Source of the DNA: a virus | Lineage: Duplodnaviria > Caudoviricetes | Virus record (IMG/VR): IMGVR_UViG_3300031994_000065 | Coordinates: 1-64,000 of that record | Strand: one strand, 5' to 3' | DNA length: 64,000 nt | Part shown: piece after piece, positions 18,889 through 59,372 of the stretch | Layout of the letters: each line of letters opens with the position of its first letter | Numbering within the stretch: position 1 is the first letter of the stretch | The notes under the pieces: generated by a model | The model's input: only the letters and a program-made list of their open reading frames with translations | What the model was told of the DNA's origin: nothing | Databases searched by the model: none | Made by a program: the position numbers and the translations under genes

Positions 18889-20079
18889 ATGAGATTTTTT
18901 GGAAACGCTAGACCTATTGGTTCTGGTAATACATTTGATGTTCCGCATGACGGTCTCGCTTTCGCAATGCACGAATCTTTCTGTGATCTGGAAATTTATT
19001 TTGGTGATTCCGAAGTTATGATGGCAAATATGTACGAAAACTGGATTATGGACACTAAACACAGTGCAACTCAGAAAGTTGTTATGTACGAAGGCGTCAT
19101 TGCTAGTGCTTGGAAGAAAATCAAAGATTTTTTTATCTCCATCGGAAAAAAGATAAAATCGTGGTTTAATTCCGTTGTCAAGTTTTTCCGTGCTATGTTC
19201 TCTAGCAATGCGAGTTTCATCAAGAAATATAAAGAATACATTAAAGGCAAAGAAGACAAAGATTTTGAGTTTGAAGCTCATGCTTGGAATCTCCACCCTA
19301 TGAAGCAAGTTAGAGACGACAGTAACACTTTTAGTGATTCGATCGATTTCGATAAACTTGTGGAAAAAATTGCTAAAAAGGCAGGTGGAAACGCTGCTAC
19401 AGGTGGAAACGCTGCTACAGGTGGAAACGCTGCTACAGGTGGAAACGCTGCTACACAAGCAGAGGAAAGTTGGCGCATCGTTCGAGAATCTGGAGACAGC
19501 GACGACGCCGCTTGGGGTGGTACCGACGATGAAGTCAAAAAACTGAAAAAATCTATCGACGCACGAATGTTTAAAAGTTTGAAAGGCGAAAGTGCCACTG
19601 GGACAACAACGATCTCTAAATTCAAAACAGCACTTAAGAAAGCTATCACAAATGGTGAAAAGAAATCTTGTAAAGGTTTTGGTTCAAAAAACACTTTTTC
19701 CCGTGATGAAATGATTCGATGGGTTGAAGATGAAAAGACCATTATTAGTGAAATAGAAGAAAATGCGAATGCTATTTCCGAAGACGCAGATTCGTATGCT
19801 GAAAAAGTATCGAACTTGATCGATAACGTTAATAAAGAACAGTATGATGTTGATGCATATAGAAGAGGTGTAAACGGAGCCGCGTCTGTCGCCAAATACG
19901 CTTTGTCATATCAAACGGCGGCTGCCTCAATAACGAAAGAGATGTATCAAGAAATCGTGGATGAATGCCGTAGCATTTTGGGGCAGTTCGTGCGTTATAG
20001 TGTAAAAGAATCTGGAAGCGGTTATCGTCATACCAAAAATAATGTTTCATTGATGGAAACATGGGTCAGAGGATGGTAA
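18889..20079 (+). CDS. Internal head protein, paralog family member 3
   Basis: MYEGVIASAWKKIKDFFISIGKKIKSWF; RBS aaggagga precedes ATG at 18889. Confidence 0.6.
   Translation: MRFFGNARPIGSGNTFDVPHDGLAFAMHESFCDLEIYFGDSEVMMANMYENWIMDTKHSATQKVVMYEGVIASAWKKIKDFFISIGKKIKSWFNSVVKFFRAMFSSNASFIKKYKEYIKGKEDKDFEFEAHAWNLHPMKQVRDDSNTFSDSIDFDKLVEKIAKKAGGNAATGGNAATGGNAATGGNAATQAEESWRIVRESGDSDDAAWGGTDDEVKKLKKSIDARMFKSLKGESATGTTTISKFKTALKKAITNGEKKSCKGFGSKNTFSRDEMIRWVEDEKTIISEIEENANAISEDADSYAEKVSNLIDNVNKEQYDVDAYRRGVNGAASVAKYALSYQTAAASITKEMYQEIVDECRSILGQFVRYSVKESGSGYRHTKNNVSLMETWVRGW
19384..19455 (+). repeat. Coding tandem repeat, 18 bp x 4 (GGNAAT)
   Basis: ggtggaaacgctgctaca repeated four times in frame. 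Confidence 0.95.
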
Positions 20080-24329: not shown

Positions 24330-24372
24330 TCAAATCTCCTCCTTTACAAAAAAGTTAGAGAGCATAAATTTT

Positions 24373-24442
24373 GGGAAAAAGAATCCGCACCGCATTTGTT
24401 GAATGCGGCGTCCGATACCGTAATACGGCGCGGACTCTTTTT
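24373..24442 (-). terminator. Three-way-junction 3' element/terminator (copy A)
   Basis: Outer stem AAGAGUCCGC/GCGGAUUCUU encloses two hairpins, then UUUUU; homologous to 33363-33426. Confidence 0.7.
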
Positions 24443-24446
24443 GGTT

Positions 24447-24875
24447 TTAAGCTTCGACGAGATTGATGTGGATCAATTTTTGCGAATTGTTGAAATCGTC
24501 AATCATTTTTTCAAAGCGGGTTTTAACAACCGGTTTTTCGACGAGTTCGAAATACCAGCGTTCGAAACCGTTGTCGATTGACGGGGTCGCATAAAACGCG
24601 TTGAGTTTCTCGATCGCTGTTTCCAGCGAATCAACGCGCATGTCAACGACCGGTCCCAAAGCCGCTTTGGACAGTGTTACCTGTCCTTTGCTTTTCCAGA
24701 GAGGGTTGACGCTGAAGTAACGCGCTTTTCTCGTGGCGAAGCAGGGGAACCAGTTGCCGTTGTCGTTTTCCGCAATGATTGCAACATCGAGTTGTTTGGC
24801 TTTGTTGTCGTGCAGGTCGACAAAACCATTCAACATTGCGAACGTTGCGATTGCGATTGCCGAAGTCTTTTCCAT
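24447..24875 (-). CDS. Early cassette cargo A, hypothetical protein
   Basis: ATG at 24875 spaced from AAGGAGG; flanked by a conserved leader and 3' element. Confidence 0.7.
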   Translation of the reverse strand: MEKTSAIAIATFAMLNGFVDLHDNKAKQLDVAIIAENDNGNWFPCFATRKARYFSVNPLWKSKGQVTLSKAALGPVVDMRVDSLETAIEKLNAFYATPSIDNGFERWYFELVEKPVVKTRFEKMIDDFNNSQKLIHINLVEA

Positions 24876-24879
24876 GATA

Positions 24880-24993
24880 AACATCCTCCTTAAAGATGTG
24901 GATCGTAGGTTTTCGTCAATTTAGTACAAGAGAACTCCTACTAAACTCTCATACACCACGATAATATATATTCATAGGTGGGGGCGATGTCAG
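24880..24993 (-). promoter_or_regulatory. Early promoter (CTGACA-N17-TATATATTAT) plus structured leader, copy A
   Basis: Near-identical to 33163-33275 and 34004-34117. Confidence 0.85.
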
Positions 24994-25042
24994 ATCGGAA
25001 AATTAGGTATATTGCTATAATACATGAAAAAGATAGATAACA

Positions 25043-25066
25043 AAGGAGGGAACTAAACCCCTCCTT
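25043..25066 (-). terminator. Terminator hairpin
   Basis: aaggaggg / ccctcctt inverted repeat at the end of the nuclease gene. Confidence 0.6.
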
Positions 25067-26195
25067 AAAATAATGATTTTTTCGAACGTGCAGAATATTG
25101 ATTCAGTTCGACGACATTAATTGGACTCATCTCGAAATATTTAGAATTCAGATTTTTCAATGCGTCATTCTCATACTTATCCACAAGCTGTTTCGTTATG
25201 TTGAGTTGTTGCGGTTCTGAGACCATGCCAAGTTGTCTGTCTAAATCGACGCACATGATACTGTTAGCAATTCGCTCTTTGTTATCATCATTAGGACCGT
25301 CTTTGATTGCCATTATAAGGTGTTCTAATCCAATTATTTCAGCTTCACTTATATCCAGCTCTTTGAACAATTTGTGTAATCTCTTGTATATGGTTTTCCA
25401 TCCACAACCTTTGATCTTTCCGATACCGCGACGTTTATCTCCAACTATGGCAAGAATGAAAGTAATCAGGTATGCAGGAAGTTTGTGTGAATTCTTTATA
25501 TCGTGTTTCTCTCTGATGATGGTAAAAAGATTCTCTTTGGTTACTATGTAACTTTCGTCACCTTTTGGATACATAACCAAGAAGTTCTTGTTGACGTATT
25601 GCAAATCGTATTCGTCTCTGGTTATCAAAATATTCAATTGACCATCGAGTGCTTTAGAGTTGCATAACAACAGAGGAACGAGAGAACTTTCGAGTCTATT
25701 TGATGTTACCAAATATACACCTTCCACATAACCCACTATGGTTCTGAGAGCTTTGATGACAGACTCCAGAACCATATTAGTTGCCTCGTAGTTTGGATTG
25801 TCGGTGTAATCGTAAATGAATCTCTCGCGATAGTGTTTAAGAAACATCGTATTATTCAGTGTCGTGTATTTATCGTATTCATTCATGAATAGAACGATAT
25901 TAGTCTTGATTCTGTTTTTGGTAAAGAATCGACGATAATGCCCGGCAAGATTCAGAATGTTACTGATAATGGAAAAATGAAAGTTCTTGGTTTCAGTTTT
26001 ATCCATAGAAAGAATGAATTCTTCTACGGTTTGGTTATGTATGCAATGAATAATTGATTCGAGATTGATGAATATATTTACTCGATCTATTACTTCTCTA
26101 ATACCAACAGAACCAAATAGAAGATTCATTTTTTCGAACTTAATCTTGTGAGCATTGAATATCTTATCAATCGTTTCAGATGAACTTGAAATCAT
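25065..26195 (-). CDS. RNase H / 5'-3' flap exonuclease (T4 RNase H-like)
   Basis: NIFINLESII N-terminal PIN-like motif, ITRDEYDLQY, and helix-3-turn-helix GDKRRGIGKIKGCGWKT. Confidence 0.7.
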   Translation of the reverse strand: MISSSSETIDKIFNAHKIKFEKMNLLFGSVGIREVIDRVNIFINLESIIHCIHNQTVEEFILSMDKTETKNFHFSIISNILNLAGHYRRFFTKNRIKTNIVLFMNEYDKYTTLNNTMFLKHYRERFIYDYTDNPNYEATNMVLESVIKALRTIVGYVEGVYLVTSNRLESSLVPLLLCNSKALDGQLNILITRDEYDLQYVNKNFLVMYPKGDESYIVTKENLFTIIREKHDIKNSHKLPAYLITFILAIVGDKRRGIGKIKGCGWKTIYKRLHKLFKELDISEAEIIGLEHLIMAIKDGPNDDNKERIANSIMCVDLDRQLGMVSEPQQLNITKQLVDKYENDALKNLNSKYFEMSPINVVELNQYSARSKKSLF

Positions 26196-26270
26196 TTCAA
26201 TCCCTTCTTCAGATAAAAAATATTGGGCGGGAAAGGTTCCCGCCCTTAACGTGTGTTTCCTTGTCAGATT

Positions 26271-27158
26271 TTATTTCGTCGTGATGTGTTCGATGATTTC
26301 GCGGATGTCACTGCCGCCATTGCCGAGTTCGCGCAAACGTGCGACTCGGTACATCACATTGCTGCCTTGCTGAGCTGTATCGAGCAGAATGACACGGTAA
26401 GCTCTGTTGTGCAAGAACAGCGCACTCAGAACGGCGTCCGGGTTGAGTTCGATATAGCAAAATGCTCTGCCGTTTTTGTCGCGTTTCTGAGACTCGTTCA
26501 CTACGAGTTTGCTCGTATCGACAAACGGTTTGACAAGCTCTTTCAATTTTGCATCCAAACGAACGTGTGCGCCACGCGCTTTGCCGCCGAGCAATTCGAG
26601 TTCGATGTCGTTAGCCGAGCGACCATTCACGACAAGATGTTCCATCTTCGGAAAGATGAGATACATCTTGGGAATGTCGTTCAGTACTGCAGCGCCATCC
26701 CCGAAATAGATGTAGCGGTAACCGTGATGCTCGAAGTATTTTTCGAAATACGTCGAAATGTCGCGACTCGTGAACGTGAAGATCGACCCACTGGGATCGA
26801 GTCCGAGACGATTGTCGTTCGCGCGGTTCCCAATGACACATCCGCCTTCGTAGTTATACAAACCATTCGGATCGCTCACGTCGGATTGTGGACGAGTGAA
26901 AGGTTTACCACCTCCGTCTTTCGGACGTTGCGGTTGCGGATTCGGCTGACGCTGTTCGCGCTGTTGTTGACGCGGTTGATGTACTTGCTGCTTGGGTTTC
27001 GGAGTAGGTTCAGGTTTAACCACCGGCTCTGCCTCCTCTTCTTTTTCGAATTCGTCGTTGTCTTCAAACGGATCGGGCAATTTGCTCGCTGCCGATTTGA
27101 CCGTGCTTTCTTCGCCGACTGCACGGTACAAGCGAATTTCCTCGCTGCTTACTTCCAT
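26271..27158 (-). CDS. Hypothetical early protein
   Basis: 295 aa, RBS AAGGAGG, early motif at 27203-27212, own terminator at 26226-26246; P/Q-rich linker. Confidence 0.7.
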   Translation of the reverse strand: MEVSSEEIRLYRAVGEESTVKSAASKLPDPFEDNDEFEKEEEAEPVVKPEPTPKPKQQVHQPRQQQREQRQPNPQPQRPKDGGGKPFTRPQSDVSDPNGLYNYEGGCVIGNRANDNRLGLDPSGSIFTFTSRDISTYFEKYFEHHGYRYIYFGDGAAVLNDIPKMYLIFPKMEHLVVNGRSANDIELELLGGKARGAHVRLDAKLKELVKPFVDTSKLVVNESQKRDKNGRAFCYIELNPDAVLSALFLHNRAYRVILLDTAQQGSNVMYRVARLRELGNGGSDIREIIEHITTK

Positions 27159-27202
27159 GAGTAATGCGCCTCCTTCTTTAATTTGTGGTCGTAACCGAGT
27201 TT

Positions 27203-27212
27203 ATAATATATA
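27203..27212 (-). promoter_or_regulatory. Early promoter motif TATATATTAT
   Basis: Exact motif ~45 nt upstream of the start codon. Confidence 0.65.
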
Positions 27213-27287
27213 CTTAGAAATCGCGTTAAAATACAGCCACTCCTATAGTTAGTTGTGACTGCATTTATAATAGATTAGCGATTCCTT

Positions 27288-28334
27288 TTATCTGTTGACT
27301 TTTGCAAAATTTCTTTCCATAAGTGACCTAACTTGCGGAGCCCAGTTATAGTTATCCGGGCAGTAGACGGGGTTGATCGAACTGACCGTATCTAAGCCGC
27401 GTGCAAAATAACACTCATTGATAAGTTGCCCGAATGCATCGATATTTTCTTTTTTCGAGCTGTAACTTAATCCCATCATTCCGAAAAGGTTATTATCATT
27501 CAACGCCATAAATGAAGTCCCATGACCGCTTTCGAGTTGTGCAACAGCCAAAGCAAATACGGCATTGACTCCGTATGTGGATTCCATTTCGTAGAACACA
27601 TGACCTAACCCTTCGAGACCGGTTCCGGCAACAATCGATTCCAGTTCATCCATACTCAATCCACATCGTTCGGTTATTACGTCTGAAAGCGGATAAACCG
27701 GTGGAATAAGGTTGACTCTGTAATGTTCGATTTTGCCACTGCTAAGAAACGGTTTGACGTGTTCATAGTAATACGAACTGGGATAGTAATCGACTTTAAC
27801 GAATCGTTTTTCAATATATGCTGCTTCGCCGATGCAATAGAAGTTGCTGTTGTAGATTAACGGAACAATCTCGTATGTATTGTACTTGTCTAATTGTATC
27901 GGTTTGTCGTCTTCAGCAGGCTGTTTGTAACATATCGCGTCGAGTTCGTTTCGAGTGAATAACACGCCGACGATTTTTTCTGTCGAAGGCTTCTCAAATT
28001 TGTCAAGTTCGCAGTACGCTCTGTATTCGCCAGCTACTCCCCATTGTGGATTAATGGGGCTGACCGAGATAGCAGTACCACTAGGAAGCGTGCCAATGAG
28101 TCGAGCCGAAGAATCGGGTTCGGCATACATCGGAACATCTTGTGTAGAGACGCAAACCAAGTCTGCAAATTTGTCTATTTCTACAAGGGGTTCCGCTTCC
28201 GCAACGTTTGTCTGAACAATCTGTTCATCTGTCGCCGGATTGACTCGAGGATTGAAGAAGTTGTGATTGATTCCGGCTCCAATCAGCATCGCACCAGTTA
28301 CACAGATCGCCGCGATTAGATGTTTAGTATACAT
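27288..28334 (-). CDS. Glucosaminidase-family (GH73) peptidoglycan hydrolase with N-terminal signal/anchor and SH3 domain
   Basis: GLGHVFYEMESTYGVNAVFALAVAQLESGHGTS...NNLFG catalytic motif; VPMYAEPDSSARLIGTLPSG is SH3-like; hydrophobic N-terminus. Confidence 0.85.
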   Translation of the reverse strand: MYTKHLIAAICVTGAMLIGAGINHNFFNPRVNPATDEQIVQTNVAEAEPLVEIDKFADLVCVSTQDVPMYAEPDSSARLIGTLPSGTAISVSPINPQWGVAGEYRAYCELDKFEKPSTEKIVGVLFTRNELDAICYKQPAEDDKPIQLDKYNTYEIVPLIYNSNFYCIGEAAYIEKRFVKVDYYPSSYYYEHVKPFLSSGKIEHYRVNLIPPVYPLSDVITERCGLSMDELESIVAGTGLEGLGHVFYEMESTYGVNAVFALAVAQLESGHGTSFMALNDNNLFGMMGLSYSSKKENIDAFGQLINECYFARGLDTVSSINPVYCPDNYNWAPQVRSLMERNFAKVNR

Positions 28335-28362
28335 TAGTGGATTCCTCCTTTGAGATTGAGTT

Positions 28363-28374
28363 TACCACTATGTC
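28363..28374 (-). promoter_or_regulatory. Late promoter RACA-N6-TA
   Basis: Minus strand GACA-tagtgg-TA. Confidence 0.7.
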
Positions 28375-28537
28375 CGCAGCTTTTAGGAAATAACCGTATC
28401 TTATTTTGCTTAAATCAAGCAATATTTGAGTTACACCAAACCAATTATTAAAATTTCATTAAAAATGTACTGGTCAAGATATATACATCGAATCATTGCG
28501 TGTATTCTGATGTGAATATCGGCTGATTTGGGCTGAA

Positions 28538-28549
28538 GACAAAGCGATA
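28538..28549 (+). promoter_or_regulatory. Late promoter RACA-N6-TA
   Basis: GACA-aagcga-TA. Confidence 0.7.
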
Positions 28550-28577
28550 ATACACTACACAGAAAGAAGGTGAAGAA

Positions 28578-29888
28578 ATGGGTCAATTATTACGAGGACA
28601 GATGTTCGGAACAGGTTTTGAGAAGCAAATTTATCATGATAATCATTCTGAGTTCGAGCAGAAAGTCCATAGCCAGTATGCGAAATATCTCAGTGAACTT
28701 CCAATATTCACTGAATACTTTCACATAGTTAAAGCATTAACTACGGAAGATACCGGTTTGTTAAACATTGATAAATTGACTGGAGACAGCTCACCGTTCA
28801 GATACAATCTCATTAAAGATTTTCCTCTGTTTGGTCTCGAGCAGATTCTTCTCGATATCGAAGATAATGATGATGTTGGTTTACAGACAAACTACGAGGG
28901 TGAGGCAATAATTCTTCCACAAACTATAACTCCGTTACCGGATGATGCATTTATTGCAACAGCTCTTGGAAAGAAATGGTTTTTCCGTGTAATCGAAATT
29001 CATTACGACACAATTCTTGCGAAGAACTATTACAAGATTAATTTTGTGGTAAAAGGTGTCGATAATGGTTATTATTACGAGGATTATCTTAAGAAGGTAA
29101 ACGACACATTCATTTGCGTTTACGACAATTATGGAACACAAGACGCATTTCTCATAAAGGAAGAGAATTATGATATTACTAATAAGCTCCAGAAAATGGC
29201 AGATGAATTATCAAGGAAATATCTCACTTTCTTCTATAATGAGAAATATAATGCGTTGATGGTTAAGAATCCACATGGTTACAATATGCTGTATGATGCT
29301 TATGTGAATTACTTCTGTAATGAGCAATCGATATTTGCTCAGAATCCAAGAAACTTTTGGAATTATAAGTTCTATGTAGAAACCAGACCGGAATTTGAGT
29401 TCTTCTATAACGCAAACTCAATTCAATCGGTTGTCATTAACAAAGATTTGGAATTGATTCAATCACCAAGATTTATGCGGTATTATGATACTATTCCCAC
29501 TTTCACCGATTCAATATTCCAGTTCTATGGAGATTTTGACACTTCCGGAATAACGATAAGTGAACGACATATAAATCCATTTGGTAGACAGATTCATCCG
29601 TTAATACCTCAAGATTTGTTTGAAGCAATCTGCTCTAATGGAAACGTTGATACCACAAATTTGATCTACAATGTCTTGGTGAAATACATCAATAATGATA
29701 TTGAAAGTGTAGGAAAACTTTTAGGTAATTTCAATGACAAAATTCGCGTTAGACCCACATACTTGGATTATGTCTTGATACCTCTATTCCTGTACATTCT
29801 TTATCAATACAAGAAGTCTGTTACCAAGACAAACAATAATTATGTTGAGAATGAACAGCTTCGACAAAAACTTAAAATCTCACACTGA
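28578..29888 (+). CDS. Virion structural protein, probably neck/head-closure
   Basis: SPFRYNLIKDFPLFG...EGEAIILPQTITPLPDDAF...FRVIEI is a beta-rich motif recalled from phiKZ-like virion proteins; late promoter. Confidence 0.5.
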   Translation: MGQLLRGQMFGTGFEKQIYHDNHSEFEQKVHSQYAKYLSELPIFTEYFHIVKALTTEDTGLLNIDKLTGDSSPFRYNLIKDFPLFGLEQILLDIEDNDDVGLQTNYEGEAIILPQTITPLPDDAFIATALGKKWFFRVIEIHYDTILAKNYYKINFVVKGVDNGYYYEDYLKKVNDTFICVYDNYGTQDAFLIKEENYDITNKLQKMADELSRKYLTFFYNEKYNALMVKNPHGYNMLYDAYVNYFCNEQSIFAQNPRNFWNYKFYVETRPEFEFFYNANSIQSVVINKDLELIQSPRFMRYYDTIPTFTDSIFQFYGDFDTSGITISERHINPFGRQIHPLIPQDLFEAICSNGNVDTTNLIYNVLVKYINNDIESVGKLLGNFNDKIRVRPTYLDYVLIPLFLYILYQYKKSVTKTNNNYVENEQLRQKLKISH

Positions 29889-29891
29889 AGA

Positions 29892-30233
29892 ATGGAGGAA
29901 TTTGAGATGCTTAAGACATTACGTTCACAATTGGCAACTAAAAAGGCAGATGCTTCGTTTGAAGGATTTGTCCTTGATGCTATTGAACGCGCACCTCAGA
30001 GAGATATCATGCTCGAAGAATGCGATGCTCCGGAATGTTGGCATGAAGACGACGATTACTGCGATGAAGATATTGGCAAGTTGATCGATGCTCTTCCCGA
30101 ATCCGACATCGATTTGGATAATGAAGCGATTATTCAAGGAATTATTCGTGGTCGCGACGAACAGGGTAACGAGAAAGATATGTCAGTGGAAGAATGTTGC
30201 GAGGCGTATATACCGCCCACTGAAGAAGTTTAA
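29892..30233 (+). CDS. Small acidic protein, probably virion
   Basis: 113 aa, co-transcribed; contains FEG and MLEE motifs like the head proteins. Confidence 0.55.
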   Translation: MEEFEMLKTLRSQLATKKADASFEGFVLDAIERAPQRDIMLEECDAPECWHEDDDYCDEDIGKLIDALPESDIDLDNEAIIQGIIRGRDEQGNEKDMSVEECCEAYIPPTEEV

Positions 30234-30239
30234 GAAAGG

Positions 30240-30758
30240 ATGAAACTAATGGAAACTGATATGACTACATTCGTAGACAAGAAACTTGTAAAAGTTACAG
30301 ATCGTGGTCCGATTATGCCGCTCGGTGGAATCTATGGACCCACTCTTCCTCAGATTATGACCGTTAAAACGATTGCGATTCTCTTGCAAAAGGGTTATCA
30401 CGTTACGGAAATTCTGAATAATAAGTCTGAAGTTAAACTCAGTCTTTCGAACTACAATGTCGACATCAATGGCGATGGTGGTGAAGGTCTTAAAAAGGTT
30501 AAGAAACCTGATGAAGATATTAAGCCTCTGCCGAAGAAAAATGCCAAAGTCGAAACTCCTGCGCCTGAAGCAAAAACTGAAAAACCTGCTGAAAAAGAAT
30601 CGGTTAAAGTTGAGACTGCCGTCGTTGAGAATAAGATTACCGTATCAGCGGCTGGAGGTAAGGCTGAAGCCGATTCTAAAAGGAATGGTAATGACGCTGG
30701 AGGTCTTATGAGTACCAAAAAAAATAAGCCTAAGGCGGACGAACTTACCTCTAAGTAA
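30240..30758 (+). CDS. Hypothetical protein with K/E/P-rich tail
   Basis: 172-aa ORF ending before a terminator. Confidence 0.6.
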   Translation: MKLMETDMTTFVDKKLVKVTDRGPIMPLGGIYGPTLPQIMTVKTIAILLQKGYHVTEILNNKSEVKLSLSNYNVDINGDGGEGLKKVKKPDEDIKPLPKKNAKVETPAPEAKTEKPAEKESVKVETAVVENKITVSAAGGKAEADSKRNGNDAGGLMSTKKNKPKADELTSK

Positions 30759-30777
30759 TTTGGGATTAAAACGAGAA

Positions 30778-30822
30778 AAAAAAACCGGGGAGCAATCTGA
30801 TAGAATTTGCTCCCCGGTTTAA
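30778..30822. terminator. Bidirectional terminator
   Basis: aaaccggggagcaa / ttgctccccggttt stem, with an A-run on the left. Confidence 0.85.
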
Positions 30823-30847
30823 CCGTTTTTTGAACTGCTGCTACTGA

Positions 30848-31027
30848 TTAGCGGCGAGTTCCACAAGTGCTATTGTCACCCATGGTCGTCACCTCCTTTC
30901 AGTAACAGGAGGGTGGTTTTACGTTTCATTTACCTCCCCCCACATTTATTAGATTTAAGTCGCAGCTACTAATTTCACTGCGTCTTATACCTATATAATA
31001 TATATTTTCGATTCTAAGATATGTCTA
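30848..31027 (-). other. Small early transcription unit carrying only two micro-ORFs (30876-30929, 17 aa; 30848-30883, 11 aa)
   Basis: TAGACA-N17-TATATATTAT at 31027-30995; RBS GGGGGAGG and AAAGGAGGTG; terminator at 30778-30822. Confidence 0.5.
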
Positions 31028-32414
31028 AATCGATTTCTCCAGTTCTACTGACAGAAATACCTTCAATTGTCGATTCCAAAACCGTTTTGGTTCTGTAGAA
31101 TGTGATTCTCCGTACAGGCATCTTCGGCAATTTTCTTTCTCTGGAACGTAAGAAAATGTCAGATATATGAATGAAGTAATTCTTGTGAACATCGTTATCA
31201 AACATTTTCACCATAGTTACGATTGACTTTTCTTCGTCTCGATACACATGAACCGGGATATATATCGTATCTTTCATCTTCACTGCTACTTTGAATGCAG
31301 TATCTCGCTCAATATCGTCATTGTCTCCACATATGTAATATCCGTCTATGATGCCTCTGCGGTCCATTTCCAATACATCGTGCGCAACACTGGTTCCCTC
31401 TTTAATTGGTGGGAATCCAAAATTTTCGACCATGTTTAACAGAGCCATATCACATATCTTATTGACGATGCGATAATTGCTTAAGAATTGATGGATTTCT
31501 TCATCGGAGAAATTTCGAAAGTTTGAAGGTCTGGCTAAGAAACCGAAATCATTCATATTACTGAGATTAATTCCATTAGTAGCCCAATCTCTTGGATTTA
31601 GAAGTTCATCTTTCATTCGCCAGTCATATTCGCTAGTGAGTGGCCATTGGTCATCATCCGGTTTACTTTGTCTAATAACAAAGTCAATATCGTCACACAT
31701 CTTAGTGATTATCGGAGCATCAATATGCTTCTTGATTTCACCAAATGCATTTATTAACATATCTTTGTTAGCAACTCGCCGAATCTTTTCTAACATATTG
31801 GCGTCGTACACCGATTTTGTATAGAAAAAATTTCTGGTTATGTCGTAGCAAAGTTTCAGGTCTGTGTCATAGACGTAATCCGAAATTCTTGTGGTGTTAA
31901 ATCGTCCGTTCAGAATATAATCTTTATCGAGATAATTCTGAGCGGATTTCTTAATAGCTTGGTTTATTGCGTCATTTAATCTGTCACTAAACTGACATGA
32001 ATGATGTTGATGCGCTGGATCTACCAGTTGATTCCTGAAGATATTAGACCATTTATCAAATGTGAGCACACCTTCAGCATAATCAGTCGCGTTCATTATG
32101 ACGTGTTTTTCTTCCATTGTGATGGTTGGGGCTTCTAAGTAATCTATAGAAGACGATTCTGCTGCGATAATATCTTTATCTGCGTATGGTTTAAATGCCG
32201 AATATTTCTTCAGTTTGACTTTCATGTTGTATTGTTTGGCGAGTCTGTTTATATTCGCAGCTAATTGCTTACGCTTTTTTGGTGGGCATGTATGGAAGTA
32301 CGCAATCGCACTACGGACGTGATTTTCGTCGGGCATTGGAAAAGCTCTATCTTCCGGAAGACCGAACTGATCTGCGGGGAGTTCTTTTCTTTGAGCACTA
32401 GAAAGTTTAGGCAT
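31014..32414 (-). CDS. DUF6582-like N-terminal domain protein, putative virion protein
   Basis: MPKLSSAQRKELPADQFGLPEDRAFPMPDENHVRSAIAYF is a recognisable small phage domain; late promoter upstream. Confidence 0.6.
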   Translation of the reverse strand: MPKLSSAQRKELPADQFGLPEDRAFPMPDENHVRSAIAYFHTCPPKKRKQLAANINRLAKQYNMKVKLKKYSAFKPYADKDIIAAESSSIDYLEAPTITMEEKHVIMNATDYAEGVLTFDKWSNIFRNQLVDPAHQHHSCQFSDRLNDAINQAIKKSAQNYLDKDYILNGRFNTTRISDYVYDTDLKLCYDITRNFFYTKSVYDANMLEKIRRVANKDMLINAFGEIKKHIDAPIITKMCDDIDFVIRQSKPDDDQWPLTSEYDWRMKDELLNPRDWATNGINLSNMNDFGFLARPSNFRNFSDEEIHQFLSNYRIVNKICDMALLNMVENFGFPPIKEGTSVAHDVLEMDRRGIIDGYYICGDNDDIERDTAFKVAVKMKDTIYIPVHVYRDEEKSIVTMVKMFDNDVHKNYFIHISDIFLRSRERKLPKMPVRRITFYRTKTVLESTIEGISVSRTGEIDLDIS

Positions 32415-32431
32415 CGTTTATCACCTCTTTT

Positions 32432-32443
32432 TAGTGCTTTGTC
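32432..32443 (-). promoter_or_regulatory. Late promoter RACA-N6-TA
   Basis: Minus strand GACA-aagcac-TA. Confidence 0.7.
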
Positions 32444-32510
32444 GCGAGGGGTAAAAATAGGTGAAATTCGGAGAAAAAAAAACCACGCGGTTTTGCGTGG
32501 CTGAATTGTT

Positions 32511-33158
32511 TCAATATGCGAAAGTCATAGGAATACCCATGTCTTTCAACATGTTGAAACAGCTGATGAAACCTTCTCTTGGTTTGAGATACTCAAACCG
32601 AAAGAAGACTTTCCAATTTTCGCCGTAGCGTTTCTTGTAAACTTTTTCCGCTTCTCCGGATTCGAAATTCGTGACGTAGTTTTCGTACGCCTTTTTCGAA
32701 ATCCAGAACCCCACGATTTTTTGCGGAGCGACAAACGCCTCGGTGTAGGCGCTGTATTCGTCGTCGAGTTTTTCATAGTCGTCAACGATGAACTCCTCAC
32801 GAATTGATGGGTAACGCTTCCCATCAATCGTGTAGCTCCCGCAATCAACGGAGGCCATTAACGACGTTTCGCCTTTCACATAAACGCCTATTACGCCGAG
32901 TCCTCCGTTCATGAGCCTAGATTCAGGCCCGGGTTTCGAGCAACTTATCTCGGCTCCGGTGCCAAGAATGGTCAACAGTTTTTCGAGTGCGACCGCAGGC
33001 GACTGCGATCTGTTGACAGCGTTGAGGCCGTGCGCCCAGACCACTCCGTCAGTTCCTCTCGGAACATGACGTGATTTGAGCGCCTTAGCGTTTTCGAACG
33101 CCTTTCTCTCCTCGTCGTTCAAATCATCTGATTTCACACCATTGACGTAAATGCTCAT
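32511..33158 (-). CDS. Early cassette cargo B, hypothetical protein
   Basis: ATG at 33158 spaced from AAGGAGG; terminator at ~32474-32502. Confidence 0.7.
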   Translation of the reverse strand: MSIYVNGVKSDDLNDEERKAFENAKALKSRHVPRGTDGVVWAHGLNAVNRSQSPAVALEKLLTILGTGAEISCSKPGPESRLMNGGLGVIGVYVKGETSLMASVDCGSYTIDGKRYPSIREEFIVDDYEKLDDEYSAYTEAFVAPQKIVGFWISKKAYENYVTNFESGEAEKVYKKRYGENWKVFFRFEYLKPREGFISCFNMLKDMGIPMTFAY

Positions 33159-33162
33159 TTCA

Positions 33163-33275
33163 AACATCCTCCTTAAAGATGTGGATCGTAGGTTTTCGCA
33201 ATTTAGTACAAGAGAACTCCTACTAAACTCCTATACACCACGATAATATATACTTATGGGAGAGGGTAATGTCGG
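33163..33275 (-). promoter_or_regulatory. Early promoter (CCGACA-N17-TATATATTAT) plus structured leader, copy B
   Basis: Leader differs from copies A and C by a few bases. Confidence 0.85.
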
Positions 33276-33292
33276 AACGTAAAAAGGAGAAA

Positions 33293-33330
33293 AAGCCAGA
33301 ACCTATTAAGGTTCTGGCTTTGTCACGCTT
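33293..33330 (-). repeat. Terminator-like hairpin duplicated at 34338-34374
   Basis: aagccagaacc-N6/N5-ggttctggctttgtcacgctt occurs at both sites. Confidence 0.85.
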
Positions 33331-33362
33331 CTTGTTGTGGGAGGTAAAAAATATCTCCTTGA

Positions 33363-33426
33363 GGGAAAAAGAATCTGTGCCGCAAATGTGTGCGGTGTCT
33401 GTGCCGATTTACGACACAGATTCTTT
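33363..33426 (-). terminator. Three-way-junction 3' element/terminator (copy C)
   Basis: Homolog of 24373-24442 with compensatory CGC/GCG to UGU/ACA changes. Confidence 0.7.
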
Positions 33427-33432
33427 CGTGAA

Positions 33433-33999
33433 TCATTTCCAGCCTTTTGCGCAGATAACCTTCGGAATATATTTCCAATACTGCACCGATTGCGCGCAGG
33501 TGTAAAGACGTATTGTCTTGTCAGCCCAACACACAAGCTTTCCATTGTTATATGGAAGTAGTATTGTTTCATATAAACTGATAGTGTTTTTGTCGCGTTT
33601 GAAACTGCGCCCGTTGAAATGGAAGTCTTGATGGCTACCATTACAACAAGAGATGAGTGTGTACTCTCCCTTGTCGAATTTGTTCGCCATCGAGAAATGA
33701 TTTTCTTTCTTGCCTTCGATAATGAATTCTGCGAATCCTCCGTGAACGCAAGCAACCAGCCCCTGATCTGTTACTAACGGGACTGCTTCCATCTGGACGG
33801 CGAACCTTTTCAAGAATGACCATATGGTCAATTTCTTTCCAGTATCCGCGTATCTCACATCGGTGTACAACGACGCAGTTCCGTTTTTGACTTTGAAGTA
33901 CGCGATAACGTACATCGCGCCGAACAGAATTGCCCCTCCTGTGAGACCCCAAATGACGTTAATAACGGAGACGATCGAATTTACCAGAGCGTTTTTCAT
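33433..33999 (-). CDS. Early cassette cargo C, membrane-anchored hypothetical protein
   Basis: N-terminal TM segment (VINVIWGLTGGAILFGAMYVIAYF); ATG at 33999. Confidence 0.7.
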   Translation of the reverse strand: MKNALVNSIVSVINVIWGLTGGAILFGAMYVIAYFKVKNGTASLYTDVRYADTGKKLTIWSFLKRFAVQMEAVPLVTDQGLVACVHGGFAEFIIEGKKENHFSMANKFDKGEYTLISCCNGSHQDFHFNGRSFKRDKNTISLYETILLPYNNGKLVCWADKTIRLYTCAQSVQYWKYIPKVICAKGWK

Positions 34000-34003
34000 T
34001 TCA

Positions 34004-34117
34004 AACATCCTCCTTAAAGATGTGGATCGTAGGTTTTCGTCAATTTAGTACAAGAGAACTCCTACTAAACTCTCATACACCACGATAATATATACTTAGG
34101 AGGGTGGGCGATGTCAG
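34004..34117 (-). promoter_or_regulatory. Early promoter (CTGACA-N17-TATATATTAT) plus structured leader, copy C
   Basis: Leader is identical to copy A. Confidence 0.85.
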
Positions 34118-34138
34118 ATTGAAAAATTATATCGTGTC

Positions 34139-34150
34139 AACATATCATTA
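34139..34150 (+). promoter_or_regulatory. Late promoter with no downstream CDS
   Basis: AACA-tatcat-TA pointing into the structured region. Confidence 0.6.
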
Positions 34151-34328
34151 GATGCATCTATAATACTAATGTGCGGGCAATAGCTCCACTTTAAGGGAAG
34201 ATAGGTTATTGGTGACAAACGCCTAAGTTGTACTCGGCTTATATAGTAGACTTCGGATTAACCCGCCTCGAAGTCGCCGCGTAACAGAATTGGCGGCTAG
34301 GCCTATCTTCCTGGGAGTCGTTTTTTTT
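34150..34328 (+). ncRNA. Candidate ~180-nt multi-branched non-coding RNA, family unknown
   Basis: GGAAGAUAGG (34196-34205) pairs perfectly with CCUAUCUUCC (34302-34311) and closes four hairpins; U8 at 34321-34328; G-U pairs favour the + strand; no ORF. Confidence 0.65.
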
Positions 34329-34385
34329 GCGGACAATAAGCCAGAACCTTGTAGGTTCTGGCTTTGTCACGCTTTTTGTAGTTTG

Positions 34386-36671
34386 TCAGATTGAAATCAT
34401 CGGTACGGTTTTGTGATGCCACGATTCGTGTTCTTTGCGTTTGCAGTGTGGGCATTCGTTTTTTATAATACCGGTATAACCACAGACCGGGTCGCGGTCG
34501 ACAGGGTGGTTCACACTGAAATATCCCATATTTGCATCGTGCATGGCTCGTACAAGTTTTTCAAAAGCTTCTACATTTTGGAGAGGATCCCCATTGTACT
34601 CAATATAGCTTATCGCGCCAGCATCACATTTTTCATGGTATGGTGCTTCGATACGAATTTTATCGATAGCTCGTATCTTATAATACACAGGAACATGGAA
34701 ACTGTTCGTGATGTACAATCTATCGGTGACACCACGTATGATTCCATAATCTTTGCGATTCGCTTTTTGAAATGTATTTGCTGTCCCTTCGGCTGGAGTT
34801 GAAAAGGTTGACCAATTCATTTTTTCTTCAACTTTAAACTTGTCGGTTTTGTCACGAAGATGTTGGACGATTTCCAATCCGAACCGTTGCGAATCCTCAT
34901 TCTCTCCATGATGTTTTCCTGTTAATGCTATTAAAGTTTCTGCAAGACCACAGAATCCAATAGAAAGGGTAGCATTTTTCAAAACTTTTCGTATAGTATC
35001 ATTTGGCGATAATTCATCGCTTCCCATCCAAACGCCTTGACCCATCAAAAACGGAAAATTGAAAACGTGTTTATCTGCAATAATTTGAAAACGGTAAAGA
35101 AGATAATCGTGACTAAGTTGAATATAGTGATCGTATATCTCGTAGAAACGTTTTATGATCTCTTCTTGTGGTGCGTTGTTTCCAAGTTGACGTTTTGCTT
35201 CGAGTGCAAATTTTGGAAGATTAAGAGTCACAAAACTAAAATTTCCTCTTCCACCAGTTTCTTCAGGTCCATTCACATTTCCGATAACACGGGTACGGCA
35301 TCCCATCGTTGCAGCGTATGTATTATAATTTCCTGGTTTATAATACTTCAAGTTAAAAGTGGCATCACACGATACAAAGTTCGGGTACAACCTCTTAGCA
35401 CTCACTTCACATGCACGCTTAAATAAGTCGTAATTTGGATCGCCTGGGTTGAAATTGATTCCTGATTTAATCTGAAAAATCGAAATTGGAAATAGTGGAG
35501 ATTCTCCCTTTCCCATTCCAGCATCAATAGCGTTGAGAGTTTCTCTTATTGCCAATCGTCCCTCTGGAGAAGTATCCATACCAAAGTTGATAGAACTGAA
35601 CGGAACTTGCCCGCCTGACCTAGCGTGTAAGCTATTAAAATTATACACCATTGCTTCCATAGCTTGACGTGTCTCTTCTTCAGTGGCATCTTTTGCTATT
35701 TCATAAATTGAATGAAGACCATCCCATTCGTTTCGCTCGACTTCCATGAAAACTTTACAGAAAACTCTCCATATTTCTTCTATGGTTTCCCAATAATCAC
35801 TAGAATTCTTAATGTCTTTATCTTCGACGTAATGTATCTTTGTTCTATCGAATTCTTCTTTGACTTCTTTACTAACCGTGTGCTTGTCGTACATGTTCGA
35901 TGTCACAAATTGTCCAAATTCAACCGTTTTAGATATAATTTCTTTCACGAATGTTTTTCTGATCCCTTCAGCCATCGCATAATCTTCTGCATTTAGTGAC
36001 TGGCCTCCGAAACAGTCGTTCTGGTCTGATTGAATTGCCACACATGCTAAAGCTGCATATGATCGAATAGAGCCTGGTTCTCTTATATGACCATGACCTG
36101 TTGAAAACCCACCGTGAAACAGTTTCAGTAGATCAATTTGACAACAATTCAACGTTATCATTGAGAAATCGTTATCGTGTTCATGAATGAAATGTTGACG
36201 ATGTGCTTCAGCAAATTCTTTTGGTTGGGTATTAAGCGCGAATTCTTTTGCTCCATCTGATCCAAGTTTAAGCATTATGCCCATTGGACCATCAGTGTTA
36301 ATATTTGCATTTTCCCTCTTATCGTCCATCGCTGAGGCATCAGTAAACAAAATGTCTTTATAAGTTTGCATGAGATTCTTCTTCGATTCCCGACGAAGCA
36401 TATGTTTATATCTGTAACAAATATACTTCTTGGCTATCTCGAAAAATCCGTGTTGCATAAGACGACGTTCCACGACATCTTGAATATCTTCGACTGATAT
36501 TTCAGTACGATCACCAATATCGGACTCTATCTGTTCAATGATATTCTCAAGATCGCGTTCGGTCATTTGTTCGACGGAAGCGTTGTTAGCTCCAACAATC
36601 GCTTTGTAAATTTTCGATCGGTCGTATGAAACCAACGAACCGTCGCGTTTGATAACGCGTTCAAGATTCAT
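34386..36671 (-). CDS. nrdD: Anaerobic (class III) ribonucleoside-triphosphate reductase with ATP cone, lacking the C-terminal glycyl-radical segment
   Basis: VIKRDG ATP cone, TLNCCQID, ARSGGQVPFSSINFG, MGCRTR, GNFSFVTLNL, STPAEG, C-terminal CxxC pair; no RITGY-type motif. Confidence 0.93.
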   Translation of the reverse strand: MNLERVIKRDGSLVSYDRSKIYKAIVGANNASVEQMTERDLENIIEQIESDIGDRTEISVEDIQDVVERRLMQHGFFEIAKKYICYRYKHMLRRESKKNLMQTYKDILFTDASAMDDKRENANINTDGPMGIMLKLGSDGAKEFALNTQPKEFAEAHRQHFIHEHDNDFSMITLNCCQIDLLKLFHGGFSTGHGHIREPGSIRSYAALACVAIQSDQNDCFGGQSLNAEDYAMAEGIRKTFVKEIISKTVEFGQFVTSNMYDKHTVSKEVKEEFDRTKIHYVEDKDIKNSSDYWETIEEIWRVFCKVFMEVERNEWDGLHSIYEIAKDATEEETRQAMEAMVYNFNSLHARSGGQVPFSSINFGMDTSPEGRLAIRETLNAIDAGMGKGESPLFPISIFQIKSGINFNPGDPNYDLFKRACEVSAKRLYPNFVSCDATFNLKYYKPGNYNTYAATMGCRTRVIGNVNGPEETGGRGNFSFVTLNLPKFALEAKRQLGNNAPQEEIIKRFYEIYDHYIQLSHDYLLYRFQIIADKHVFNFPFLMGQGVWMGSDELSPNDTIRKVLKNATLSIGFCGLAETLIALTGKHHGENEDSQRFGLEIVQHLRDKTDKFKVEEKMNWSTFSTPAEGTANTFQKANRKDYGIIRGVTDRLYITNSFHVPVYYKIRAIDKIRIEAPYHEKCDAGAISYIEYNGDPLQNVEAFEKLVRAMHDANMGYFSVNHPVDRDPVCGYTGIIKNECPHCKRKEHESWHHKTVPMISI

Positions 36672-36743
36672 AAGCGTTACCTCCTTTGAATTAGTTTAAG
36701 GGTAAGTTGAGGAAGAGATTCGAATCTCTTCCTCATTTTGAGT

Positions 36744-37346
36744 TTATTTGTAATTCTTTCTGAATTCTGGGAGATACCAAAGAGCTTTTCCTCTGAGAAC
36801 GTCTCCACCGCGAGAACCGTCTATTGCATGAGGATTAAACTTTGGGGATTCTGAAGTTTCAAGATATTCCAAATCCCAGCGTTCACAAGTTGATTTCGGT
36901 CCATATTGTTCATGACACCACAAACCATCTTCATTATCTGCAGCTTCTCCATGTGTCATTACATGACCTGGATTGATTGTGAGCCATAATCCTTCAGCTA
37001 CTGCACAAACAGCCAAAGCCATACTTTCAATCTGTGCAGCGGTTGGAGGATTCGGACCTAAGTCTTTGGTATCCGCATATACCGCACAACATATTGTGAT
37101 GTTGATAGCTCCACTGTTACGTTTGTATGTTCCGGCGATAACATCAGCAAAATTATCTGTACTGGCATAATATTTGCCATTCTTATCGATATTGATATGG
37201 TAGTCGTCAGACTTATTATCGTACCAACCAGCAGTCCAGTGGAGATAAATCTTTGGTTCTCTACCAAGTGCTTTTGCTTTATCCCAAACTTCTTCTCGGG
37301 CAGCAGAAGCGAGTTGATAGATTTCTTTAAGTGTAACTTCACGCAT
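36744..37346 (-). CDS. N-acetylmuramoyl-L-alanine amidase (Amidase_2 type), candidate endolysin
   Basis: IYLHWTAG...DYHINID...VMTHGEAA Zn-binding motifs; late promoter at 37364-37375. Confidence 0.85.
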   Translation of the reverse strand: MREVTLKEIYQLASAAREEVWDKAKALGREPKIYLHWTAGWYDNKSDDYHINIDKNGKYYASTDNFADVIAGTYKRNSGAINITICCAVYADTKDLGPNPPTAAQIESMALAVCAVAEGLWLTINPGHVMTHGEAADNEDGLWCHEQYGPKSTCERWDLEYLETSESPKFNPHAIDGSRGGDVLRGKALWYLPEFRKNYK

Positions 37347-37363
37347 TTTCGTTCACCTACCTT

Positions 37364-37375
37364 TATGAGATTGTC
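37364..37375 (-). promoter_or_regulatory. Late promoter RACA-N6-TA
   Basis: Minus strand GACA-atctca-TA. Confidence 0.7.
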
Positions 37376-37441
37376 TTGAATATTAAGAGGTTAGAAATGA
37401 AAAAAAAATCTCGCCCATATGAGCGAGACCGCAGCGGAGCG

Positions 37442-37930
37442 TTATTGCTCCAAGAGTTCATTGAGATAAACGACATCTTCAAACGAAAGATTGTTTTCCT
37501 TGATTATGGCGCGAGCCCAGTTGATGTAGCCGCCGAAGCAATACTGATCGTCAAAATAGTAGCGAATACCGTTGATGTCGACATACTCGCATTCTATTTC
37601 ATCATCGAGCGTTTTGAACCATTGGCTTCCGACACTGATGCGGTTGGCGCGTTCGATCCGGGTAGGATTCGTTGCTCCATTGCAAATTATTTCGGCCGCC
37701 TGTTTCGGTGTTACGATGTCAACATCAAAGATGCCAACCTCGTGCCAATCATCGCTCACAACAGCATACTTTTTGTAATATGCCGTGCTGATGTAGTAAT
37801 GCGGATGACTATGGCACTCATGGAAGTTCGGGCACCGGGATCCGATGCACTCACCATCGAAATCCTCTGGTTCAGTGCATTGAAAGTTGAGTATTTGACC
37901 CAGCTCGTATCCGAAATCGTCTGTGGTCAT
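37442..37930 (-). CDS. Early cassette cargo D, acidic Cys/His-rich hypothetical protein
   Basis: RBS AAGGAGGG; terminator at 37399-37428; N-terminal Cys/His cluster. Confidence 0.7.
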   Translation of the reverse strand: MTTDDFGYELGQILNFQCTEPEDFDGECIGSRCPNFHECHSHPHYYISTAYYKKYAVVSDDWHEVGIFDVDIVTPKQAAEIICNGATNPTRIERANRISVGSQWFKTLDDEIECEYVDINGIRYYFDDQYCFGGYINWARAIIKENNLSFEDVVYLNELLEQ

Positions 37931-37932
37931 TC

Positions 37933-38039
37933 CAAATCCCTCCTTAAGGGATCGTAGGTTTTTTCATCTTAGTAGTGAGCTGCCTACTTAACTCTTCTAC
38001 GCGTATATAATATATAAATGTGGGTGGGGGTGATGTCGG
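37933..38039 (-). promoter_or_regulatory. Early promoter (CCGACA-N17-TATATATTAT) plus type-2 structured leader, copy D
   Basis: Identical to copy E from ggatcgtagg to the promoter. Confidence 0.85.
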
Positions 38040-38040
38040 A

Positions 38041-38245
38041 TTGAAATTAAACCCTTCTTAAAAAAGGTAATTCGATTCCGATGATGAATCATATAAGGAG
38101 GCAAACATCATGAAATTTGGTGGTATTACACTTGGTGGTCGGAACATTATCGTACCAACCAGCAGTCCAGTGGAGATAAATCTTTGGTTCTCTACTAAAT
38201 GCTTTTGCTTTACCCCATACTTCTTCTCGGGTATTGCGAGGTTGG
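38041..38245 (+). pseudogene. Chimeric duplication relic: 5' end of the 38978 gene fused to an amidase-gene fragment
   Basis: 38041-38151 matches 38906-39031 and 38146-38231 matches 37215-37300; joined at ATTATC microhomology. Confidence 0.85.
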
Positions 38246-38304
38246 AAAACAAAAAAAAATCACGCCCGTATAATGAGCGTGACCGGTGAGCGTGACGTGA
38301 CCAG

Positions 38305-38790
38305 TTAGAAGAACCATCCCATTTTGCGGGCGGTTTCGCGGAAACGTTCCCAATTTTCGTCGCGGATCGTTGATACCGCTTTGTCTTTGACGCTTTCTAC
38401 AATCGCATCGTAGACATCGCAGTCCCACTTATCGGGCAACTTGATCTCATCGTCCCAATCCCAGTTCTCAATAAATGTGATCTGGTTGCGGCGGATGATG
38501 TCATCATGGCCTGATTCCGGCGGAAAGATCTCGTAGTACTCATCGTACATTTCGTCGAGCTTCGACGAGCTGTAATAGTCGAGATGATACGTCGAAACGA
38601 ACGCCTTCACGTCCATCTCATCTGAGATGAGCGCTTGGAAATCATCGAGATAATCCGAATGGACCGTCTCGAAAAACTCCCAGTTTTTCGCATAACGTTG
38701 ATCGTATGGGAGCACTTTCTTGACCATCTTGTCCTTGAGAGAGTCAAGAAGCGCCCTTTCTCTCACGTCGAGGTCGCTGTACTTAATCAC
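38305..38790 (-). CDS. Early cassette cargo E, acidic hypothetical protein
   Basis: GTG start after TAAGGAG; D/E/W/Y-rich 161 aa; terminator at 38251-38283. Confidence 0.7.
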   Translation of the reverse strand: MIKYSDLDVRERALLDSLKDKMVKKVLPYDQRYAKNWEFFETVHSDYLDDFQALISDEMDVKAFVSTYHLDYYSSSKLDEMYDEYYEIFPPESGHDDIIRRNQITFIENWDWDDEIKLPDKWDCDVYDAIVESVKDKAVSTIRDENWERFRETARKMGWFF

Positions 38791-38794
38791 TCTA

Positions 38795-38904
38795 CCATCT
38801 CCTTACGAGGCGAGGATCGTAGGTTTTTTCATCTTAGTAGTGAGCTGCCTACTTAACTCTTCTACGCGTATATAATATATAAATGTGGGTGGGGGTGATG
38901 TCGG
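38795..38904 (-). promoter_or_regulatory. Early promoter plus type-2 structured leader, copy E
   Basis: Identical core to copy D. Confidence 0.85.
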
Positions 38905-59361: not shown

Positions 59362-59372
59362 AGGTGACAGAT

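Follow-up and report, generated by a model that had tools for sequence, protein, structure and literature searches.

Five early cassettes at core-gene boundaries

The 64,000-nucleotide (nt) stretch analysed here, referred to below as the window, forms the opening 64 kb of a viral contig 81 kb in length (IMGVR_UViG_3300031994_000065). Between positions 24372 and 38903, it carries five minus-strand gene cassettes, A to E, in which a common promoter and structured RNA leader precede unrelated proteins. A sequence-only reading had put these loci forward as a candidate for an undescribed system in which the open reading frame (ORF) alone is swapped within a fixed frame. The cassette system is real and looks active: its anatomy recurs in related phages, among which cargo has been exchanged, cassettes have been relocated, a block of core genes has been transposed at the leaders, duplications have left scars and the leader has covaried.

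The RNA polymerase subunit of this phage is closest to those of the Bacillus phages BpSp and Goe21 and the Listeria phage LPJP1 (35–37%), which identifies it, at the sequence level, as an AR9/PBS1-like two-polymerase jumbo phage. Its host is probably a member of the Selenomonadaceae, because NrdD is nearest to that family (about 60%, among the bacterial genomes scanned) and the amidase has a named relative in Pectinatus. Two further records, G001 and G002, have an identical stretch in common with the contig end and otherwise contain non-overlapping genes, giving a total of about 187 kb of an incomplete genome, about a quarter of which is unseen. The join between G000 and G002 is an overlap of just 127 nt inside a further cassette, F, and G001 continues differently; the joined coordinates are therefore not those of a finished genome. 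The two contexts of F in the phage's own records may represent two copies or two arrangements.

In the direction of transcription, the order of the window is U-(E,D)-X-(C,B)-Y-(A)-Z, where U is the upstream gene, X the amidase–nrdD block, Y a block running from a 466-amino-acid (aa) gene to a 376-aa gene and Z a 478-aa gene. All features lie on the minus strand, apart from the E-D scar and block Y, which are given without a strand. Cassette E opens with a promoter (38872–38903; GACA box, C-rich spacer and AR9-type early motif; +1 at 38865) and continues with a leader containing the pseudoknot core and the Shine-Dalgarno (SD) region (38791–38865), a 161-aa cargo of unassigned function (38305–38790) and a terminator (38248–38284). 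A duplication scar (38041–38231) separates it from cassette D, which comprises a promoter (38007–38038; +1 at 38000), a leader (37931–38000), a 162-aa cargo without a family (37442–37930) and a terminator (37397–37430). Next comes block X (34331–37400), with the amidase at 36744–37346 and nrdD at 34386–36671. Cassette C is built from a promoter (34085–34116; +1 at 34078), a leader (34000–34078), a 188-aa cargo with a hydrophobic N-terminus and no family (33433–33999) and a terminator of the same family as that of A, a long covarying stem with an inner hairpin (33362–33425). A second scar (33286–33338) lies before the promoter of cassette B (33243–33274; +1 at 33236), whose leader (33159–33236) is followed by a 215-aa cargo with a predicted ADP-ribosyltransferase-like fold (32511–33158) and a terminator (32470–32502). 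Beyond block Y (25060–32480), cassette A consists of a promoter (24961–24992; +1 at 24954), a leader (24876–24954), a 142-aa cargo without a clear structural match (24447–24875) and a terminator (24372–24440). The true starts of cargo A, B and C lie 9 nt downstream of the longest-ORF starts.

The early promoter and its leader

The common promoter pattern proposed for the five units is present at all of them without a mismatch and far above chance; when up to two mismatches were allowed, six matches were found against 0.49 expected. The experimentally mapped early promoter of phage AR9 consists of an AT-rich motif, six nt and then G+1 (PMC5312081), and this N6-G+1 spacing fits all five units. 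Judged by motif and spacing, the AT-rich box is the AR9 early promoter of the virion RNA polymerase (vRNAP), which places the start of the leader at +1. Altogether, 33 AR9-type early promoters were found in the ~187 kb, nine of them with the leader (A–E in the window and F–I in G002) and 24 without. Whereas AR9/PBS1 early promoters share the AT-rich motif, the six nt and G+1 (PMC5312081), in the cassette subset this core is also preceded by a GACA box with a C-rich spacer and followed by the leader. The box and spacer are nearly confined to the nine leader-bearing promoters. The GACA box is merely -35-like, and a sigma70 scan listed none of the five unit promoters.

The leader is about 55 nt long and begins exactly at +1, and its nine copies are 70–100% identical, all standing ahead of small unannotated ORFs. 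In an alignment, 19 copies drawn from four phages form a single family, which unites the two leader types distinguished by the sequence-only reading. Stem 1 opens at the first transcribed base; it has either 9 bp or, where a bulge interrupts it, 4+3 bp. Within its loop, five bases would pair with a downstream CCUAC as stem 2 of an H-type pseudoknot, after which comes a variable hairpin over the SD. On an unfitted MAFFT alignment, 89.8% of cells were paired, compared with 31–62% in slid controls, and five pairs had changed on both sides. With the register set by hand, the pairs of stem 2 and outer stem 1 were all kept in 15 of 15 distinct leaders. The leader is thus predicted to fold as an H-type pseudoknot, the covariation being support rather than proof because the leader sequences are related.

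The extent of leader homology differs from the earlier description in part. The leaders of A and C are identical, as claimed, through the SD hairpin, while those of D and E agree fully across the ~55-nt core and diverge beyond it. Homology sets in about 50 nt ahead of +1 and is strongest as far as the pseudoknot extends; instead of reaching the start codon, it often ends before the SD. Within one genome, leader identity across unrelated cargo reaches 100% for A and C, 98% for B and G and 100% for H and I (rows r3_E and r4_B of the identity matrix were out of register and were left out).

The leader was found only in phages at least about 78% identical to this one. Leader patterns searched in IMG/VR and JGI metagenomes returned only this phage's own records, the other matches being due to chance on inspection, and there was no match in annotated phages or in Rfam scans. 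Targeted searches for the fluoride riboswitch (RF01734) and the pistol ribozyme (RF02679), which are alike in H-type topology, gave no score against either model. Over 151 genomes of the likely host family, a leader model gave a single 36-bit match without stem 2; a host origin of the leader was therefore not found in the genomes searched. The leader also resembles CPK-1 and the T2 gene 32 operator in its H-type topology and in its place in an mRNA leader near the ribosome site (PMC3835772). However, CPK-1 has a stem 2 of 6–7 bp, a loop 1 of 1–2 nt and no inter-stem loop (PMC3835772), whereas the present leader has a stem 2 of 5 bp (7 in two variants), a loop 1 of 3–6 nt and an inter-stem loop of 2–7 nt. 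Because the knot starts at +1 ahead of unrelated genes, its most likely job would be to protect the 5' end and to provide a standard translation start for any cargo; a switch would not be the simplest reading.

Cargo exchange and movement of core genes

That the cargo ORFs are unrelated, as had been proposed, is upheld by several comparisons. The five have no significant pairwise BLASTP similarity (best E 0.02), a profile comparison of A and B gave a probability of 0.5%, and the predicted models of these two have different folds; the ORFs are thus not paralogs. Together with the different genes found in orthologous slots (see below), this means that neither outcome named beforehand as refuting the cassette idea holds overall, slot A being the exception. 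In exact look-ups, the cargo genes were singletons (C and D at 90% identity) and their neighbours had relatives. Pfam and PHROG scans of the cargo were empty except for G and a 61-aa gene, which matched weakly to families of unknown function. The best structural match to the cargo B model is CteC (Z 7.0, root-mean-square deviation 3.6, 136 aligned), followed by DarT (Z ~4); H43 and E140 are invariant, and S-x-S is only partly kept. The predicted fold of cargo B is accordingly ADP-ribosyltransferase-like. The cargo A model had no fold match above Z 4, which is not evidence of a new fold, and an Atlas hint of an SMC/MukB-like protein was rejected as chance level. High cargo GC3 was likewise rejected as a sign of foreign origin, as other early genes average 0.52 against 0.59. 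In some relatives, cargo A is followed by a 45–49-aa gene (L061:14018-14155; L084:499-648), which in L082 is fused to the C-terminus of cargo A (L082:19-462).

Four related phages were available for comparison: R1 (L057), R2 (L061), R3 (L062, L067 and L068; 87% at the nt level) and R4 (L089 and L088). A search for related loci with three window proteins found none. Orthologous slots hold different genes, slot A excepted, and tabulation of the cargo per locus indicates that it has been swapped between relatives. For example, the occupants of the slot before the amidase in five phages are D, homologs of E and F, a 61-aa gene and a 144-aa gene; ahead of the 466-aa gene, the slot is filled by B, by F or by a pair of 146- and 107-aa genes. 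The overall order is (E-like)-X-(F-like)-Y-(A-like)-Z in R3, U-(146+107 aa)-Y-(F-like)-X-(A-like)-Z in R1, U-(153+107)-Y-(61 aa)-X-(A-like+45)-Z in R2 and U-(B-like)-Y in R4, and L079 has yet another gene before the amidase. The E homolog (57%) stands alone before the amidase in L062. Leaders have been swapped under orthologous cargo and homogenised across unrelated cargo: the B homolog (71%) in slot 1 of L089/L088 has, in L089, another leader type than window B, and L057 and L089 have a slot-1 leader in common ahead of unrelated cargo. The cargo A family is kept in slot A in five relatives (41–79%) and is absent in the distant L085/L086, in which the order is nrdD-Y-Z and slot 3 is empty. In L059 (3120-3340), the amidase and an F-like cassette are arranged as in L057, the upstream gene differs (388 aa) and the switch lies at the promoter; either the assembly has produced this difference or very close relatives have two arrangements.

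The sequence signals give each unit its own promoter and its own terminator. Terminators go with the cargo between phages, and in the case of F and B the promoter does so too, starting from a T-tract near -50. On this comparison, the moving unit is the whole promoter-to-terminator moron, which speaks against both an RNA intermediate and a fixed frame that takes up bare ORFs. The 3' elements of A and C are homologous with a covarying outer stem, as had been noticed; the three-way junction ascribed to them was not recovered, since RNAalifold gives as consensus a long stem whose inner hairpin is weak. Cassette F, recognisable by its characteristic terminator, stands ahead of four different genes and is joined to each of them at the U-tract. 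A ~400-nt unit without an ORF, with its own early promoter and terminator, occupies slot 3 before the A-like cassette in R3 (L067:7850-8200; L068:10150-10520); it is a candidate non-coding RNA cargo and has no Rfam match in L067.

Core genes have moved as well. Block X stands in the order U-Y-X-Z in L057 and L061 and in the order U-X-Y-Z in the window and R3, and the outgroup L085 matches U-X-Y-Z from nrdD on. R1, R2 and R4 form a clade, and X therefore moved once. All three breakpoints lie at leader-bearing slots, and the junction of X to A falls inside the repeat: within one leader region of ~130 nt in L057, 13419-13587 corresponds to the window's C side, and the match to its A side runs from 13454 onward. 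If X was excised as a circle between the leaders of slots 1 and 2 and reinserted at the slot-3 leader, three outcomes are predicted, all of which are seen: B stays with Y next to U (L088/L089), the nrdD end joins A, and the junctions all lie in the repeat. Recombination between the flanks, one of the routes first suggested, is thus supported by transposition of a core block with breakpoints at leaders.

The scars record a different kind of event. In the E-D scar, an 86-nt copy of the amidase 5' part (95%) meets a copy of the upstream gene's 5' end (gene 38948; 89%), the two being fused at a microhomology of 13/15 nt, and the C-B scar is a copy of the nrdD end and its terminator (87%), which gives this spacer a second nrdD terminator. 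Both tandems therefore arose by unequal crossover of a slot together with its flanks and not by site insertion. Furthermore, the cargo A alleles group the window phage with R1, whereas its core genes group it with R3 (approximately unbiased test, p=0.008).

Proposed recombination at repeats and known cassette systems

It is probable, in our judgement, that the cassettes are moron-type early units shuffled by general recombination at promoter-leader repeats, probably via circles. By its sequence signals, such a unit comprises a T-tract at about -50, a vRNAP promoter, a pseudoknot at +1, an SD hairpin, an ORF and an intrinsic terminator. Copying of one promoter-leader module would have produced direct repeats of ~100–130 bp at operon boundaries. 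General recombination at these repeats, catalysed by the UvsX-like protein of the phage or by RecA of the host, would delete, insert or relocate the cargo, either within one genome or between relatives that infect a cell together. The adjoining record has a UvsX-like gene (phrog_97, E 4e-39). Any core genes lying between two repeats would be carried along with the cargo, probably via circles as for the promoter-early stem-loop (PeSL) elements discussed below, and the 3' ends would join through short stretches of homology in the U-tract and the arm of the terminator. Crossovers at microhomology between flanking genes would stack the cassettes of two phages in tandem (E-D and C-B), and leader-by-leader recombination could then collapse a tandem pair to either one.

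Several observations weigh against this proposal. Slot A never switches gene family within the clade, and X moved just once, in the common ancestor of three relatives. Small variable genes also occupy the same boundaries in distant relatives that lack the leader; the leader is therefore not required for slot turnover. The 3' joins have just ~6–14 nt of homology, which is too short for RecA-type recombination, so that a second mechanism is needed, presumably a microhomology route. Moreover, the contigs are metagenome assemblies in which repeats can cause misjoins; despite this risk, the block order agrees in two independent assemblies of different phages.

The stability of slot A and the variable slots of leaderless relatives would also fit an explanation in which the leader is a mere regulatory module and turnover comes from ordinary between-phage recombination in flanking core genes, supplemented by rare, selected illegitimate events, with the repeats little active. 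Consistent with it, both window tandems arose at junctions in the flanks rather than at leaders, and the leader structure is itself under selection. Nevertheless, we consider it unlikely in view of the leader-slot breakpoints of the X move, the X-to-A junction inside a repeat, the homogenisation of leaders across unrelated cargo and the orthologous B of L089 with its other leader type. We are similarly doubtful of a more elaborate proposal, namely that AR9-like jumbo phages run a modular early-gene exchange in which the pseudoknot would be a functional RNA (a ligand or protein switch, or a nuclease shield) controlling host-takeover effectors, an ADP-ribosyltransferase for instance, and also a recombination handle, with a dedicated process joining units exactly at the U-tracts of terminators.

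An integron-like, site-specific system, in which an unseen recombinase would act on the leader core and the terminator end, is quite improbable. Several cargo switches do lie right after the end of the conserved pseudoknot core (D/E, B/G and L057/L089), the 3' end of F is joined repeatedly at the same U-tract, and a recombinase could be encoded in the unseen quarter of the genome. However, the ~187 kb of the incomplete genome yielded neither a tyrosine nor a serine recombinase and no attC-like motif (RYYYAAC...GTTRRRY) after the ORFs; the cassettes have their own promoters, the conservation of the leader fits RNA pairing, and the crossover positions vary, lying upstream of the GACA box, within the leader or after it. 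Copying of an early transcript (+1 to U-tract) into DNA and its recombination via the leader would explain why the 3' boundary of a moved unit is the transcript end and why the conserved leader starts at +1, but this route is highly improbable, as the repeat includes untranscribed promoter DNA to about -50 that goes with F and B cargo, the scars contain opposite-strand gene fragments and no reverse transcriptase was found in the same ~187 kb.

The shuffling of early units by general recombination, which we favour over these alternatives, has a precedent in T4-type phages, where recombination between early-promoter repeats of the PeSL type yields mini-circles and swaps of ORFans (PMC2839356, PMC4122927). 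The logic of the cassettes matches that of PeSLs, and also that of morons, and the system is to that extent not undescribed. As in PeSLs, early-promoter modules of ~100 bp are repeated up to the SD ahead of ORFans, nrdD is a neighbour, recombination between copies explains indels and gene swaps, and breakpoints fall in the repeat. In contrast, the PeSL promoter is of the host sigma70 type and its stem-loop is a terminator overlapping the promoter, whereas the cassettes have a phage vRNAP promoter, a transcribed 5' pseudoknot downstream of +1 and a separate, cargo-linked 3' terminator. PeSLs number ~50 copies, mainly in hyperplastic regions, compared with nine leaders in ~187 kb that are scattered over the boundaries of core operons. 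A core-gene block has moved here, and the circles demonstrated for PeSLs are in this phage a conjecture. By definition, therefore, the cassettes are not PeSLs, given the differences in promoter type and in the place and nature of the structure.

Lambdoid morons are stand-alone ORFs with their own promoter and terminator that lie between conserved genes and are absent in relatives. The cassettes are alike in having both signals and in being absent (slot 3 of L085/L086) or replaced between the same neighbours. To our knowledge, morons have no one standard promoter-leader in common and are mostly expressed from prophages, whereas these units share such a module and are lytic early units. Integron cassettes depend on IntI, attI and attC sites and are mostly promoterless, being read from one promoter, Pc. 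Like them, the present cassettes exchange unrelated ORFs in standard positions, sometimes in tandem; unlike them, they have a promoter and terminator per unit, their copies are dispersed, and no IntI, attI or attC was found in the ~187 kb. Judged by these ~187 kb, the system is not an integron, and the best reading is that of a PeSL/moron-like system driven by general recombination, new in its phage group, promoter type, pseudoknot leader and movement of core genes.

This reading would extend PeSL-type shuffling from T4-like to two-polymerase jumbo phages. It offers a breakpoint-level case of regulatory repeats reordering core genes, which helps to explain the poor synteny among these phages. 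The slots also mark an early, fast-turnover gene pool whose members are good anti-defence or host-takeover candidates, one of them with the predicted ADP-ribosyltransferase-like fold. In addition, the 55-nt +1 pseudoknot is a compact, uncatalogued RNA that is easily tested and may serve as a portable stabilising leader in Negativicutes.

Other features were noted near the cassettes. Between the nrdD terminator and the C promoter, an ORF-free structured stretch (34139-34335) with a 10-bp closing stem and no Rfam match moves with block X; it is near-identical in L068 and has another stem in L057/L061. A late-promoter motif on its plus strand points inward, and its minus-strand minimum free energy has a z-score of only -1.3. 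At 30770-31026 (minus), an early promoter without the pseudoknot leader precedes a short unit with tiny ORFs and a terminator, and the position of this unit is kept in relatives. In G002, a long ORF-poor stretch directly after cassette I (about 58500-59560, minus) is possibly a large non-coding RNA. The same record contains three group I introns (L041:2001-4043). nrdD, intact in the window, is interrupted in several relatives, in R3 (L062) with HNH genes. Finally, large internal repeats occur in a virion-type gene at window 1-2450, and short coding tandem repeats at 18232-18416 and 19375-19471.

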